A DNA stretch of 64,000 nt from an uncultured Thermoleophilia bacterium (lineage in GTDB: Bacteria > Actinomycetota > Thermoleophilia > UBA2241). The notes beneath the pieces were generated by a model. That model was not told where the DNA came from, made no database searches, and saw only the letters and a program-made list of their open reading frames with translations. Shown piece after piece: positions 32,384 to 47,623 of this stretch (positions within the stretch are counted from its first letter, which is position 1; each line of letters begins with the position of its first letter). The stretch lies in contig CAVQSP010000020.1 in the NCBI GenBank assembly GCA_963715985.1, positions 32,001 to 96,000 of the forward strand, written 5' to 3'. A program made the position numbers and the translations under genes.

Positions 32384-33040
32384 TCAGGGCGCCGCGTCGT
32401 CCTCGTCGGCAGGGAGCTCGAGCTGGCGATACGCCACCGAAGCGAACGACAGCCGGTGCAGCTCGCAGGTGCCGTACGTCTCGATGGCCTCCCGGTGCGC
32501 CGCCGTGGCGTAGCCGACGTGGCGGTCGAAGCCATAGGCCGGATAGCGCTCGTGGAGGCGGTGCATCACCCGGTCGCGAGTGACCTTGGCCACGACCGAG
32601 GCGGCGGCGATGGCGGCCGAGCGGCCGTCGCCGCCGATGATGGCCTGATGGTCCTCCTCGTAGTCCGGAAGGCGGAAGCCGTCCACCAGCGATACAGCGG
32701 GCCTTGGCTGCACGCTCCGCAACACTGCGGCCAGTCCCTCCAGGTTGCAGCGATGCAGGCCGCGACCATCGATGCGGGCCGGACACCAGCTGACCACCGC
32801 CACGTGACGCGCGCGCCTCACGACTTCGTCGTAGAGTGCCGCGCGCCGCTCGGCCGTCAGCTTCTTGGAGTCGTTGAGCGCGTCGAGCGCCGCGAAGTCT
32901 GCGTCGTCCAGGCGGGAGTAGTCGAAGCACACCGCGGCGGCCACCAGCGGGCCGGCCAGGCAGCCGCGGCCCGCCTCATCCGCCCCTGCCACCAGGGCGC
33001 GACCGGCGAGGTCGAGGTCGAAGGCGAACCGCTCGTTCAC
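32384..33040 (-). CDS. rnhB: Ribonuclease HII
   Basis: GADEAGRGCLAGP, NDSKKL, IAAASVVAKVTRD, HRLSF. Confidence 0.96.
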   Translation of the reverse strand: MNERFAFDLDLAGRALVAGADEAGRGCLAGPLVAAAVCFDYSRLDDADFAALDALNDSKKLTAERRAALYDEVVRRARHVAVVSWCPARIDGRGLHRCNLEGLAAVLRSVQPRPAVSLVDGFRLPDYEEDHQAIIGGDGRSAAIAAASVVAKVTRDRVMHRLHERYPAYGFDRHVGYATAAHREAIETYGTCELHRLSFASVAYRQLELPADEDDAAP

Positions 33041-33056
33041 GCCTCGCCGCCGCCTC

Positions 33057-33214
33057 GTCCGTCTCGCGCTGGGCCCTTGCGGGCCGCGAGTCGCTCAATA
33101 GCACTACGCATGCTGCGCAGGCTACGGGCATTAGTCCGTCTCGCGCTGGGCCCTTGCGGGCCGCGAGTCGCTCAATAGCGCTGCGCACGGCATGCTGCGC
33201 AGGCTTACGGGCAT
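33057..33214. repeat. Tandem pair of ~77-81 bp structured REP-like units
   Basis: Identical 46-nt core GTCCGTCTCGCGCTGGGCCCTTGCGGGCCGCGAGTCGCTCAATAGC at 33057 and 33134. Confidence 0.92.
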
Positions 33215-33820
33215 CTAGTTCGCGCCGCCGATGCGGCCGGGCGGCCAGTAGCGCGCGAAGGCCCGGCCCACGAACTGGCCGCGCTTGACGGGTCCGAACT
33301 CGCGGCTGTCGCCGCTGTCCGTGCGGTTGTCGCCCATCACGAAGTAGCTGTCCGCGGGCACCTGGAAGGGCACCTGCAGTGCCCAGGGCAGACCGTTGCT
33401 GAAGGGCTGAGTGGGCTCCGCCACTCCGTCGAAGCGGCGCACGTAGGGCTCATCCAGGGGCTTGCCGTCGATGTACACGGCGCCATCGCTGAGCGAGACG
33501 GTCTCGCCGGGCAGACCGATCACGCGCTTGATGAGCACCGGCCCATCAAAGGGCGGGTGGAACACGACGATGTCACCGCGTGCGGGGTCGGAGAACCTCC
33601 AGGAGATGCGGTCGACCAGCACGCGGTCGCCGATCAGCAACGTGTCCTCCATGGAGGCTGAGGGGATGCGGTAGGGCTTGACGAGGAACTGCTGGATGAG
33701 AAGCGCCACCGCGATGGCGACCACCGCGAGGACGAGGTACTCGATCAAGGTGCGGCGCGTGGACGACCTTCTGGCTTTGCCTTTGCCGCCCGCTGTGCCG
33801 CTCTTGTCTGCTCCGCCCAT
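33215..33820 (-). CDS. lepB: Signal peptidase I (copy 3)
   Basis: IPSASM, LIKRVIGLPG, MGDNRTDSGDSR. Confidence 0.95.
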   Translation of the reverse strand: MGGADKSGTAGGKGKARRSSTRRTLIEYLVLAVVAIAVALLIQQFLVKPYRIPSASMEDTLLIGDRVLVDRISWRFSDPARGDIVVFHPPFDGPVLIKRVIGLPGETVSLSDGAVYIDGKPLDEPYVRRFDGVAEPTQPFSNGLPWALQVPFQVPADSYFVMGDNRTDSGDSREFGPVKRGQFVGRAFARYWPPGRIGGAN

Positions 33821-33850: not shown

Positions 33851-34402
33851 TCAGAGGCCGTGGAGGCGAGAGAGCGGCCAGTACGTCAGGAAGGCCTCGC
33901 CGATGATCTCGCGCCGGGGAGCCGGACCCCAGTCGCGGCTGTCGTCGCTCACGGTGCGGTTGTCACCCATCATGAAGTAGTAGCCCGCGGGCACCTTGTA
34001 GGGCCGTTCGAGCGACCACGGCTGCCCGCTGCCGCGGAAGGGCTCCGTGGGCTCCGCATACCCATCCTCCCGGCGCACGTAAGGTTCGCGGAGACGCTTG
34101 CCGTCGATGTACACGTGGCCGCCATCCAGCGAGATGGTGTCGCCGGGCAGGCCGATGACGCGCTTGATGAGCACTCTGCCCACGGCCGCCGAGTCGAGCA
34201 CCACGATGTCGCCGCGGCCGGGCTCGTGCAGCTTGTAGACCACGCGGTTCACGAGCACGCGGTCCCGGGGCACCAAGGTCGCGGCCATGGACTCAGAGGG
34301 GATGCGGTACGGCTTCACGACGAAGGCCTGCAGCAGCAAGGCGATCACGACGGCGCACAGTGCGACCAGCACATACTCGACGACGGTGCGCGGCCTCATC
34401 AC
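33851..34402 (-). CDS. lepB: Signal peptidase I (copy 2)
   Basis: IPSESM, LIKRVIGLPG, MGDNRTVSDDSR. Confidence 0.95.
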   Translation of the reverse strand: MMRPRTVVEYVLVALCAVVIALLLQAFVVKPYRIPSESMAATLVPRDRVLVNRVVYKLHEPGRGDIVVLDSAAVGRVLIKRVIGLPGDTISLDGGHVYIDGKRLREPYVRREDGYAEPTEPFRGSGQPWSLERPYKVPAGYYFMMGDNRTVSDDSRDWGPAPRREIIGEAFLTYWPLSRLHGL

Positions 34403-34412
34403 GGCACACCCC

Positions 34413-34979
34413 TCACAGTCCCGACCAGTGGTCCGGGGGCCAGTAGAGGAAGAAGCCCTCGCCGACGACGGCGTCGCGCGGCACCACGCCCCAGTCGCGG
34501 CTGTCGTCGCTGTCGGTGCGGTTGTCGCCCATCACGAAGAAGCTCCCGACCGGGACCGTATAGGGCTGCGACAGGGACCAAGGGTCCTGCATGGTGCTGC
34601 CGTAGAGCGGGTGCTGAGCCAGCGTGGGATCGACGCTCCCGCCGGTGCGATGGACATACGGCTCCTTCACTGGGTGGCCGTTGAGCAGGAGCCGCCCGTC
34701 CTTGACCTGCAGCGTGTCGCCGGGCACCCCCACGACGCGCTTGATGAACACCACCGAGCGGTCCCGCGGGTACTGGAACACCATGACGTCTCCGCGCTGC
34801 GGATCACGCAGGCGGTAGACCACCTTGTTGACGAGCACGCGGTCACCGGGGCGCAGGGTGCTCGCCATCGACTCCGAGGGGATGCGGTACGGCTTCACGA
34901 CGAAGGCCTGTACCGCGAACGCCAAGGCGATCGCGACGACGGCCATGAGGCCGAAGTCGAGGAGCTTGCCGCGCCTCAT
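34413..34979 (-). CDS. lepB: Signal peptidase I (copy 1)
   Basis: IPSESM, FIKRVVGVPG, MGDNRTDSDDSR. Confidence 0.95.
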   Translation of the reverse strand: MRRGKLLDFGLMAVVAIALAFAVQAFVVKPYRIPSESMASTLRPGDRVLVNKVVYRLRDPQRGDVMVFQYPRDRSVVFIKRVVGVPGDTLQVKDGRLLLNGHPVKEPYVHRTGGSVDPTLAQHPLYGSTMQDPWSLSQPYTVPVGSFFVMGDNRTDSDDSRDWGVVPRDAVVGEGFFLYWPPDHWSGL

Positions 34980-45097: not shown

Positions 45098-46139
45098 GCT
45101 CGGCCGAGATGGCCGGCAGAAGGTCGCTCACCGCGGCGCGGCGGCCCATGCGCACGGCCTGTGCGATGCCCCGAGCGGTGGAGCTGCCGTGGGCGATGAT
45201 GACGGGGGCGCTCACGCCCGCGAGGATCGCGCCCCCGAACTCGTTGGGGTCGAGGGCATCCTTGAGTCGCAACAGGTCGCGGCGCAGCAGCAGACCGCCG
45301 ATCTTCGTGCCCACGGACGAGTCGATGGTCTGGCGCAGGGCGGTGAGGATGCCGCGCGCCGAGCCCTCGATGGTCTTGAGCGCGACGTTGCCGGTGAACC
45401 CGTCGGTGACCACGACGTCGACCACGCGGTTCATGATGTCGCGGCCCTCCACGTTGCCGTGGAAGCGCACGTGAGGGTCGGCGGCGATGAGCTGGTGCGC
45501 CTCGATGACCTCGGGCGTGCCCTTGGTGGGCTCTTCCCCGATGGAGAGCAGGCCGACCTCGGGCTCGGCGATGCCCATCACCTCGCGCGCGAAGATGCCG
45601 CCCATCACGGCGAACTGGCGCAGGTGCTCGGGGCGGTACTCGGCGTTGGCGCCCACGTCCAGGAAGGCGATCGGCTTCGGCATGCACGGCATGATGGTGC
45701 AGATGGCCGGCCGCTTCACGCCGCGGATGCGGCGTACGTAGAGCAACGCACCGGCCACCACGGCGCCGGTGTTGCCGGCCGAGACGAAGACGTCGGCCTC
45801 ACCGCTGTGCACAAGCTTGAGGCCGATCACGATGCTGGAGTCGGTACGGTTTCGCGCGGCCCAGGCCGGCTCCTCGTCGTAGCCGATGACGTCGGCGGCG
45901 TGCATCACGGAGACATGCTCGGCGCCGGGCGGCAGCAGCGGCCGCACAACGGCTTCGTCGCCGACGAAGACCACGTGGACGTCGGGGCCGGCGGCCTGCA
46001 GGGCGCCGCGGACGACTTCGCCCGGCGCCTTGTCCCCGCCGGCCGCGTCCACGACCACGCGCACCACACGGCCGCCGGCGGACGCCGTCCACGCCGCCGT
46101 GACCTCGTGGGGAGAGACGTAGTGGGGAGCCGGCGTCAT
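45072..46139 (-). CDS. plsX: Phosphate acyltransferase PlsX
   Basis: DAAGGDKAP, SAGNTGA, LDVGANA, GNVEG, DGFTGNVALK, AHGSS. Confidence 0.96.
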   Translation of the reverse strand: MTPAPHYVSPHEVTAAWTASAGGRVVRVVVDAAGGDKAPGEVVRGALQAAGPDVHVVFVGDEAVVRPLLPPGAEHVSVMHAADVIGYDEEPAWAARNRTDSSIVIGLKLVHSGEADVFVSAGNTGAVVAGALLYVRRIRGVKRPAICTIMPCMPKPIAFLDVGANAEYRPEHLRQFAVMGGIFAREVMGIAEPEVGLLSIGEEPTKGTPEVIEAHQLIAADPHVRFHGNVEGRDIMNRVVDVVVTDGFTGNVALKTIEGSARGILTALRQTIDSSVGTKIGGLLLRRDLLRLKDALDPNEFGGAILAGVSAPVIIAHGSSTARGIAQAVRMGRRAAVSDLLPAISAELGASPGNV

Positions 46140-47200
46140 CCTTGCAGATCGGCGACGAGCCGGTCCAGGTCCACCGACTCTTCGATGAGGCCGGCGATGA
46201 GGTCGATCTTGGCGCGATCTTTGACACGCAGCCGGCCGAAAAGGCGACGCAGGTCGTCCGCGGCCGTCACCGTGTCGGTCTCCACGGAGACCAGCGGGAT
46301 GCCGCGCTCCTCGGCCCGTTCCAGCACGGCCGGGCTGGGCACATAGTTGCCGGTGAGCACGACGGCCACGGTAGGCGTGTCGAGGGCCGTGAGGATGATC
46401 TCGGCGCGGTCGCCGCCCACGATCACGACCTTGTCGGGCGTGAGCTGGAAGTAGCGCAGGGCGTGGTCCGGGCTCATGGCCCCGATCATGTACGTCTCCA
46501 CCAGCCGGTCGCCGTACTGGGCGCCGCAGACGTAGGTGCCGCCGAGGGCTTCGACGATCTCGGTCACGGAGACGGCCGAGAGGCGGCTGTTGGACGCGAG
46601 CGCGCCGTAGCTGGTGATGTCGTTCTTCGCAAGAAAGCGCACGTACTGCTCGGTGACCAGGCCCATGCGCGAGGCCGGGACCATGTTGAAGAGGACGCCC
46701 AGGAGGTGCTTCTTGAGGGCGTCCTTGACGTAGATGATGTCGTCCAGCAGGCGGGCGCCGGCGAATTTGGCGACGAGCAGGGTCCTGAGGTCCAGCTGCG
46801 CCACGACATCGGCGCCGCTGGTGCGCAGAAAACGGCCCTGCCAGATCTCCCCCAGCCCCTCGCACACGACGAGGTCCTTGCCGCGGCTGACGCGCCCGTA
46901 GGCGGAGGCTACTCGCGCCATGGCGTCCACCTCGGACCCCGCGAGCACGTCGTGCAGCGCGTCTTCGTCGAGGACCACGGGGCAGATGTCGGTGGGCGCG
47001 TCGTCAAGCTCGAGCAGCCCGGCGACGAAGCTGGCGTCCTCGTCGAGCAGGATCCCGCCGGAGGATGAGGCCAGCGTGCCGACCGGCTTGAAGTAGCCGG
47101 CCCGCAGACCCCGGCGCCGGAGCGCCAGGCACAGGCCCACGGCGATGGTGGTCTTGCCGCCGCTGCCCTGGGTGGAGGCGATGTAGAGCGACTTCAGCAC
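46136..47200 (-). CDS. BioD-like P-loop plus DRTGG-domain protein (Pta N-terminal-like, no Pta catalytic domain)
   Basis: SGGKTT, GYFKPVG, VCEG, IGAM, VGGDRAEI, VLTG. Confidence 0.85.
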   Translation of the reverse strand: MLKSLYIASTQGSGGKTTIAVGLCLALRRRGLRAGYFKPVGTLASSSGGILLDEDASFVAGLLELDDAPTDICPVVLDEDALHDVLAGSEVDAMARVASAYGRVSRGKDLVVCEGLGEIWQGRFLRTSGADVVAQLDLRTLLVAKFAGARLLDDIIYVKDALKKHLLGVLFNMVPASRMGLVTEQYVRFLAKNDITSYGALASNSRLSAVSVTEIVEALGGTYVCGAQYGDRLVETYMIGAMSPDHALRYFQLTPDKVVIVGGDRAEIILTALDTPTVAVVLTGNYVPSPAVLERAEERGIPLVSVETDTVTAADDLRRLFGRLRVKDRAKIDLIAGLIEESVDLDRLVADLQG

Positions 47201-47220
47201 GGCACGCCCCTGTCAGGCTC

Positions 47221-47336
47221 AGTCCGTCCGCCGCGGGGCCCTTCGGGCCGGCGGCCGCTCAATAGCTCTTCCGTGCATTAGTCCGTCCGCCGCGGGGCCC
47301 TTCGGGCCGGCGGCCGCTCACTAGCTCTTCCGTGCA
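47221..47336. repeat. Tandem pair of 59-bp structured REP-like units, related to 33057-33214
   Basis: AGTCCGTCCGCCGCGGGGCCCTTCGGGCCGGCGGCCGCTCA(A/C)TAGCTCTTCCGTGCA at 47221 and 47280. Confidence 0.92.
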
Positions 47337-47440
47337 CTCCGTGTCTCTACGGGTAGCAGTGTCGAGTGCGCCTGGTCTTCGACATCCGAGCCGGTCCCCC
47401 AGCTCGTTGGCGCAGCCCGACGTTGATTCACCTTCGGCGA

Positions 47441-47623
47441 TCAATCGGCGTCGAGGACGATGACCTCGCGACCCTTGTACATACCGCACTTGGGGCAGGC
47501 GCGGTGAGGGAGCTTGGGGCTCTTGCACTGCGGGCACACGCTGGCCACGTCGACACTGAGCTTCTGCTGAGACCGGCGCTGGTCACGGCGCCGCTGGGAA
47601 GTCTTCTTCTTCGGTACGGGCAT
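47441..47623 (-). CDS. rpmF: 50S ribosomal protein L32
   Basis: [13 protein letters not shown]...PHRACPKCG. Confidence 0.96.

Follow-up and report, generated by a model that had tools for sequence, protein, structure and literature searches.

Mycobacterial interspersed repetitive units (MIRUs) occur in forms of 77 and 53 bp, and Supply et al. are said to have described them from mycobacteria in 1997. Other short repeats of this kind are the BOX, ERIC and Correia-type elements, which are small, nonautonomous, transcribed and structured intergenic repeats (BOX with a tandemly repeated middle module), and the repetitive extragenic palindromes (REPs), which can stabilize upstream mRNA. Here, we analyze a family of short structured repeats found in a stretch of 64,000 nucleotides (the window) from an uncultured Thermoleophilia bacterium (contig CAVQSP010000020.1, positions 32,001 to 96,000). 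We consider it probable that these units, 59 or 77 nt long, constitute a genus-restricted family of MIRU-like intercistronic repeats that lie in sense orientation at gene 3′ ends reading (G)GAC-stop.

The portions of two reviews that were available describe MIRUs as units of 40 to 100 bp that are present in tens of copies, carry GC-rich internal inverted repeats and open reading frames (ORFs) overlapping the neighboring genes, and are flanked by short direct repeats at filled sites (PMC3184786); the rationale given is a hand-over of translation between overlapping stop and start codons, the same as is proposed here (PMC12548453). As far as those portions go, the Thermoleophilia units agree in size and copy range, in their occurrence singly or in tandem between operon genes in sense orientation, in the small ORF of each unit, the ends of which overlap the neighboring stop and start codons, in the GC-rich internal inverted repeats and in the existence of empty and filled sites with short direct repeats. 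Both families also have a short and a long form differing by a multiple of 3 nt, here by 18 nt, which equals two 9-nt sub-repeats. The likeness described here is one of architecture, and the host is an uncultured Thermoleophilia-type genus rather than Mycobacterium. Furthermore, units of the present family are anchored at the (G)GAC-stop of the upstream gene, at its stop codon, whereas MIRU insertion is described at start codons in the review literature. The family is also defined by an invariant 11-mer and by a bulged hairpin, all 10 pairs of which covary; the reviews offered no comparable covariation analysis of MIRUs. BOX, ERIC and Correia-type elements differ from the units in having terminal inverted repeats or A-B-C modules and no translational architecture, while the units are simple head-to-tail copies that start and end at stop codons.

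Anatomy, copies and covariation of the units

The window contains two loci, at 33057-33217 and 47221-47338, each consisting of two head-to-tail units. On the plus strand, locus 1 displays the frame GTCCGT-CTCGC-GCTG-GGCCC-TTGC-GGGCC-GCGAG-T-CGCTCAATAGC twice within 33057-33214, and locus 2 displays GTCCGT-CCGCC-GCGG-GGCCC-TTC-GGGCC-GGCGG-C-CGCTCA(A/C)TAGC twice within 47221-47336; GCATTA forms the joint between the units of both pairs. The two loci differ in three of the five pairs of stem 1, and each of these changes preserves pairing (T-A to C-G, C-G to G-C and G-C to C-G). All flanking genes lie on the minus strand, and the functional orientation of the units is therefore the reverse complement. 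In this sense form, a unit comprises a stop codon overlapping an AUG, a linker of 11-12 or 29-30 nt, the sequence GCUAUUGAGCG, one variable nucleotide (N), a bulged two-part hairpin, (A/G)CGGAC and a stop codon. In the window, the hairpin has two stems of 5 bp each and runs in the order stem 1, stem 2, a GCAA or GAA loop, stem 2′, a 4-nt bulge, stem 1′ and ACGGAC.

The two units of locus 1 are of the long type and measure 84 and 77 nt, while those of locus 2 are of the short type with 59 nt each. Unit 1a (33134..33217, minus strand) includes the TAG stop codon of lepB (33215-33217), and an ATG (33212-33214) follows directly; its mini-ORF (33131-33214, minus strand) has 27 codons and a TAA, with the predicted translation MPVSLRSMPCAALLSDSRPARAQRETD*. 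The computed fold of its core (33134..33179, minus strand) has the order GCUAUUGAGCG, A, CUCGC, GGCCC, loop GCAA, GGGCC, bulge CAGC, GCGAG, ACGGAC. Unit 1b (33057..33133, minus strand) begins at a TAATG (33129-33133), where its ATG overlaps the TAA that ends unit 1a, and its 46-nt core (33057..33102, minus strand) is identical to that of unit 1a. At locus 2, unit 2a (47280..47338, minus strand) has a GTG (47335-47337) in place of the ATG; its core (47281-47325, minus strand) carries GCUAGUGAGCG, and its mini-ORF of 19 codons ends with the TAA at 47278-47280. Unit 2b (47219..47279, minus strand) begins at a TAATG (47276-47280) and closes with a TGA (47219-47221), giving a 19-codon frame with the predicted translation MHGRAIERPPARRAPRRTD*. 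Its core (47222-47266, minus strand) has the stem 1 CCGCC/GGCGG and the loop GAA. A stretch directly 5′ of unit 2a (47339..47360, minus strand; sense CCCGUAGAGACACGGAGUGC), read by eye, is probably a remnant of a long-type linker, as it resembles the linker of the copy at C11:246650 of the same genome.

Further copies in the window's own assembly were first located by BLAST and pattern searches. Covariance model R1 was built from three length-matched cores of 46 nt, and model R2 was built from 142 units. In a search of the whole 4.35-Mb genome with R1, the four cores of the window scored 68.2 bits (both cores of locus 1), 44.8 bits (unit 2a) and 46.6 bits (unit 2b), with E values from 3e-6 to 2e-11, which exceeds what chance would give. 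R2 detected 11 units in this genome (E<=1e-4), and a twelfth, degenerate copy on contig C22 scored 21.8 bits with R1. Of the 53 other genomes belonging to the genus, 38 had matches to R2, and copy numbers ranged from 0 to 39 per genome; absence from an incomplete assembly is no proof. The single genome of the sister genus g27 (1/1) also matched R2. Beyond these, R2 had no match among 34 genomes representing nine more genera of the family, nor among 150 genomes sampled from 115 other genera of the phylum, and R1 matched 0 of 24 genomes from other genera of the class. This is the pattern of a young, genus-level element with strongly variable copy number. Rfam gave 0 matches in the window at the gathering score and none on the units at E<=1 (15.5 kb, five loci), and the literature searched contained no description of such repeats in Thermoleophilia.

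From about 470 matches in 54 genomes, 142 units (113 distinct) at 84 loci and in 79 arrays were taken into the analysis. The arrays comprised one unit in 36 cases, two in 28, three in 11, four in 3 and five in 1, and all 63 adjacent pairs were direct (head-to-tail), none inverted. Their periods were 59-60 nt in 19 pairs and 76-78 nt in 36, and equaled 2 modulo 3 in 42 of the 63. Neighboring cores were identical in only 23 of the 63 pairs and differed in length in 19, which argues that the arrays are not simply products of recent slippage. Contig sets from three DNA metagenome runs broke into pieces of 48-82 nt at the repeat, and the raw reads of run X21 yielded nothing further.

In the alignment of the 142 units, 94.2% of the cells at paired positions were pairing, compared to 75.0% in shuffles, and 0 of 500 shuffles reached the observed value. 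All 10 pairs showed changes in both partners, and double changes occupied 169 cells where 42 were expected; as a control, sliding the partners by 1-3 columns left 35-53% paired. Stem 1 alone occurred in at least 12 perfectly complementary variants, among them CUCGC/GCGAG, CCGCC/GGCGG, CGCGC/GCGCG, CCCUC/GAGGG, GCGCC/GGCGC, CCCCC/GGGGG and CUUGC/GCAAG. An independent alignment of 61 whole long units with MAFFT, folded with RNAalifold, recovered stem 1 with compensation at five of eight predicted pairs. It also placed two invariant outer pairs (C-G/G-C) between the end of GAGCG and the CG of ACGGAC. On the sense strand, G-T and T-G wobbles together (38) outnumbered A-C and C-A mismatches (7), which identifies the sense strand as the folding strand. 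The hairpin is thus under selection, on the sense strand, and the annotated claim of a repeat family with a selected structure outside known Rfam families held up. The loops were of the form G..A with 3-4 nt in 88 of the 113 distinct units and resemble GNRA-like RNA loops. The unpaired 11-mer GCUAUUGAGCG was nearly invariant, being exact in 59 of the 113. A second conserved hairpin was considered for the long linker and rejected: RNAalifold placed no conserved pairs there in the 61 long units, and a palindromic GGCGCC..GGCGCC occurs in the long linker of some subfamilies only.

The initial annotation, which had correctly described the two head-to-tail pairs with their compensated stem 1, had offered a REP-type element mobilized by a REP-associated tyrosine transposase (RAYT; a Y1 HUH transposase), for which the hairpin and its flank would form the recognition site in single-stranded DNA (ssDNA). 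The units do share with REPs and with the bacterial interspersed mosaic elements (BIMEs) of enterobacteria and Pseudomonas the short, GC-rich, imperfect palindrome with its bulge, the conserved flanks and the intergenic or intercistronic position, and strand-specific G-T pairs and a copy number varying among species would also suit such an element. However, no RAYT was found: the Y1_Tnp domain PF01797 was present in 0 of the 54 genomes of the genus (21 of them at least 90% complete), while a control search detected it in 6 of 14 genomes. Inverted pairs were never seen, copies ranged up to 39 and not into the hundreds, and the strict sense orientation and the stop/start mini-ORF are foreign to REPs. 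The CGTC tetramer that had been likened to the foot of REP hairpins is not conserved either. Of the 113 distinct units, 40 have ACGGAC as the 3′ flank of the hairpin and 45 have GCGGAC, so that CGTC is present in fewer than half. We therefore regard mobilization by a RAYT as highly improbable.

Stop/start frames and placement in operons

A stop codon was found at the start of 132 of the 142 units and directly after the core in 121. In 104 units a start codon overlaps or adjoins the 5′ stop codon (TAATG in 82, TGATG in 16, TAGTG in 4 and TAGATG in 2), and in 71 of these the frame closes exactly at the next boundary stop. The common combinations of linker and core (11+46, 12+45, 29+46 and 30+45 nt) are all in frame, and 12+46, 29+45, 30+46 and 29+47 are rare; in-frame length classes made up 61 of 80 locus-by-class cases. 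The lengths of linker and core thus compensate each other, in that loops differing by 1 nt go with linkers that also differ by 1 nt. Compared to the short linker, the long one has 18 nt more, and it comprises three 9-nt sub-repeats (NNNNCGNAG). In linkers of 29-30 nt (for example, 33103-33131, minus strand), these end in CGNAG (CCCGUAG / NNNNCGCAG / NNNNCGUAG), and the short type keeps one of them. An ACGGA motif like the linker sub-repeats also ends the core, and this could be a repeated protein-binding motif. On the basis of these lengths, intact units are predicted to carry a frame of 19 or 25 codons that is kept open by length.

Open frames with a start and a stop in 71 of the 142 units, and a C-terminal part ...R(E/R)TD in many copies, could be taken to indicate that the units encode a family of small proteins, 19-27 residues long. 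However, the reading frame over the most conserved nucleotides, those of GCUAUUGAGCG, differs between the 45- and 46-nt core classes (GCU AUU GAG versus CUA UUG AGC), so that it is the length of the open frame and not the peptide that is conserved. The N-terminal halves are unrelated, and conservation follows base pairing rather than codons. A protein-coding purpose is accordingly the explanation to which we assign almost no probability.

Placement relative to genes was determined for the 79 arrays with a simple script based on ORFs and GC content at third codon positions (GC3). In 52 of them, the boundary of the first unit coincides exactly with the stop codon of an upstream gene in the same orientation, with 13-14 nt between this stop and the core in short units and 31-32 nt in long units. 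In the remaining arrays, the upstream gene is antisense (7) or unclear (20). The downstream gene is co-oriented in 61 of the 79 arrays and convergent in 13. At the transition from the last unit to the next gene, the examples that were read directly are ATGA at dnaX, TGA-CG-ATG on contig C15 and TGA-CTGC-GTG at map. The copy at dnaX, in the window's genome, lies 29 nt after the gene of the large signal recognition particle (SRP) RNA, and its 29-codon frame ends with this ATGA on the dnaX start. The SRP RNA itself is of the large bacterial type (RF01854, 205 bits; L005 1207-1472, C11:246353-246618) and is directly upstream of dnaX, with the unit in between.

Pfam searches of 122 flanking proteins identified the junctions lepB|rnhB, adk|map, TatD|KsgA, RapZ|CofD, MraW|penicillin-binding protein (PBP), response regulator|histidine kinase, FtsZ|ScpA, DnaA|DnaN and PNPase|M16 peptidase. 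Several junctions are occupied in more than one species: response regulator|histidine kinase in 5, TatD|KsgA in 4, RapZ|CofD in 3 and adk|map at 7 of 30 loci. A link to ribosomal-protein operons, suggested by the two loci of the window, was therefore not upheld, as copies lie at many housekeeping junctions, SRP RNA|dnaX included. The stop/start mini-ORF, the anchoring at the upstream stop codon, the empty and filled sites described below and the likeness to MIRUs go beyond the initial annotation.

In the window, locus 1 lies between lepB (signal peptidase I; 33215..33820, minus strand; Pfam Peptidase_S26, 1.2e-51), whose stop codon bounds unit 1a on the 5′ side, and rnhB (RNase HII; 32384..33040, minus strand; Pfam RNase_HII, 4.5e-36), whose GTG start codon lies 16 nt after the last unit. 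Upstream of this array, three signal peptidase I (Peptidase_S26) paralogs stand in tandem on the minus strand (33215-33820, 33851-34402 and 34413-34979). Locus 2 is preceded by rpmF (ribosomal protein L32; 47441..47641, minus strand; Pfam Ribosomal_L32p, 5.1e-23) and followed by a gene with DRTGG and AAA_26 domains (46136..47200, minus strand; Pfam), the GTG start codon of which is separated from unit 2b by an 18-nt spacer.

Three arrays are oriented in reverse at the CTAG stop of a gene, this palindromic boundary being the stop codon of the opposite-strand gene (L003 1499-1601, C13:576594-576696 of the window's genome; L015; and L102). The units of these arrays (GCUGAGCG subtype) have no start codon. 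Elsewhere in the window's genome (contig C11, ~39.0 kb), a dimethylamine methyltransferase gene (Dimeth_Pyl, 1.7e-113, aligned as far as a stop codon over positions 4-353 of the 463 in the profile; L002 1775-2848) is followed by the Rfam element PYLIS_2 (65 bits; L002 2849-2948). The two matches indicate that this actinobacterium has a putative mtbB gene with an in-frame amber codon for pyrrolysine. Repeat units were also observed upstream of Dimeth_Pyl genes in two relatives (L097 and L116).

Empty and filled orthologous sites

Orthologous junctions were found both with and without units. Among 30 lepB|rnhB loci, 4 were filled, with two long units in the window's genome and two short units in each of three others; 20 had spacers of 19-44 nt and 6 had spacers of 62-103 nt, which look like unit remnants. 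At adk|map, 7 of 30 loci were filled and 23 were empty. Comparison of the empty sequence (...GCG GAC TGA CGCCGC ATG...) with the filled one (...GCG GAC (TAATGCCCG...CCGGAC)x3 TGA CGCCAC GTG...) shows that whole units lie between the (G)GAC codon and the stop codon. The unit's own end, CGGAC plus a stop codon, repeats the (G)GAC-stop junction, and filled sites at both lepB|rnhB and adk|map are flanked on both sides by direct repeats of T(A/G)A or GAC. In a single metagenome contig (run X2), the 189 nt between 33035 and 33225 that hold the array are replaced by 37 different letters, and the shorter side measures only 23 nt. This contig may represent a different junction of a related population and was not used as evidence.

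The T(A/G)A on both sides of filled sites, together with CTAG and CTAA at unit boundaries, is what would be expected if the units were miniature inverted-repeat transposable elements (MITEs) of a DDE transposon that duplicates TNA or TA, as the IS5/IS1031- and IS630-like families do; the stop codons at the unit ends would then be target-site duplications. We consider this origin improbable. Terminal inverted repeats are weak in the long type (about 5 of 6 positions, GCCCGT versus GTCCGT) and lacking in the short type. A search of the window's genome, the only one searched for this purpose, yielded no longer element with the ends of the unit, all matches being chance-like and in coding sequence. 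Apart from a single XerC-like integrase and a single HNH protein, the 122 flanking proteins included no transposase, and tandem head-to-tail arrays in one orientation are unusual for MITEs.

The empty sites also bear on the possibility that the units are a cis-acting RNA element of the host at gene junctions and 3′ ends, such as an RNase site, a barrier to exonucleases or a protein site formed by the 11-mer and the hairpin, with the mini-ORF a side feature and mobility of minor importance. Covariation, sense-strand wobbles, G..A loops, the near-invariant single-stranded 11-mer, the occupation of the same junctions in several species and the location of some copies at 3′ ends before convergent genes are consistent with such a role. 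However, 15 of the 53 genomes of the genus have no copy, and orthologous junctions are empty in most species, so that no junction needs the element. No terminator-like site was predicted in 32800-33500 (the promoter and terminator scan was empty), and the hairpin is followed by ACGGAC-UAAUGC with no U-tract. Moreover, an RNA site would not require stop/start overlaps and frame-keeping lengths to be conserved to the degree seen. A host element is therefore an unlikely primary explanation, and a role of this kind would be possible as a secondary, co-opted one.

A possible ribosome relay between cistrons

If the units are MIRU-like intercistronic repeats, as we favor, the arrays would be transcribed with their operons, and the hairpin would fold in the mRNA. 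A ribosome terminating on the upstream gene would re-initiate at the overlapping AUG, read through the unit and melt its hairpin, terminate 6 nt past the hairpin and re-initiate, passing unit by unit to the next cistron. As the hairpin ends 8 nt short of the following AUG and a Shine-Dalgarno sequence is lacking, entry of free 30S subunits would be hindered, and initiation would depend on prior termination. Owing to such a ribosome relay, insertion would be nearly harmless to the expression of the operon. Spread could occur through some enzyme or through microhomology at GGAC-stop, and since each copy regenerates its own target (GGAC-stop), mixed arrays could build up. We infer both the folding of the units as RNA and their translation from the DNA.

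Alternatively, the units might be a self-targeting mobile module that is moved by non-HUH machinery, with the 11-mer and the bulged hairpin, as RNA or ssDNA, serving as the recognition handle. Here, (G)GAC-stop would be the target and would be recreated at each insertion, while the hand-over of ribosomes would make hosts tolerant and the module might be co-opted as punctuation at the junctions of housekeeping operons. We hold this alternative to be possible but doubtful.

Several observations weigh against the interpretation of the units as MIRU-like relays. The relay accounts neither for the conservation of the 11-mer nor for the need of a covarying bulged hairpin; both features suggest that a protein recognizes the unit, either in its spread or in the processing of RNA. 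No start codon is present in 38 of the 142 units, and 33 of the 104 frames with a start codon do not close at the boundary. About a third of the units have lost the start or the frame, as expected of decaying copies. In the 13 arrays that are followed by a convergent gene, coupling has no target, and the three arrays at CTAG stops run in reverse orientation. The relay is also imperfect in the window itself: unit 1b has no stop codon after ACGGAC, and its frame of 51 codons extends ~62 nt into rnhB, out of frame, to the TGA at 32976-32978, while unit 2a starts with GUG and has no preceding stop codon, the end of rpmF (stop codon at 47441-47443) being ~100 nt upstream.

Further reservations concern the structure and the molecule. 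G-T pairs also stabilize ssDNA, so that the wobble bias indicates the strand and not whether RNA or ssDNA folds. The short 59-nt units folded no better than shuffles (z scores of +0.32 and +0.12), compared to -2.86 and -1.99 for the 77- and 84-nt units; owing to the unremarkable stability of the short units, the case for the structure rests on covariation. The alignment of the units was fitted to the structure of the model, and copies in arrays and in related genomes are not independent, so that the counts overstate the number of events. Finally, the stretch was found in 19 DNA runs of wetland metagenomes, and the sole RNA run, from fish gut, contained 0.05 of its words.

In the portions of the reviews at hand, MIRU-type repeats are described only from mycobacteria, in which they serve for strain typing, and no function or mechanism of spread is stated for them (PMC12548453, PMC3184786). 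The present repeats, on the favored interpretation, constitute an independent family of MIRU architecture in a distant, uncultured actinobacterial genus. They provide a comparative data set with empty and filled sites, many compensated hairpins and a wide spread of copy numbers, in which the mobilizing factor and the role of the hairpin become searchable. Should the units be self-targeting modules, the 54 genomes with 0 to 39 copies would allow phyletic profiling for the enzyme that moves MIRU-type elements. For annotation, the family accounts for short "orphan" ORFs and for the breaks in assembly seen where housekeeping genes adjoin in these metagenome-assembled genomes. Taken together with the mycobacterial MIRUs, it suggests that a stop/start relay combined with a hairpin is a recurrent means by which operons can take up inserted DNA and stay intact.

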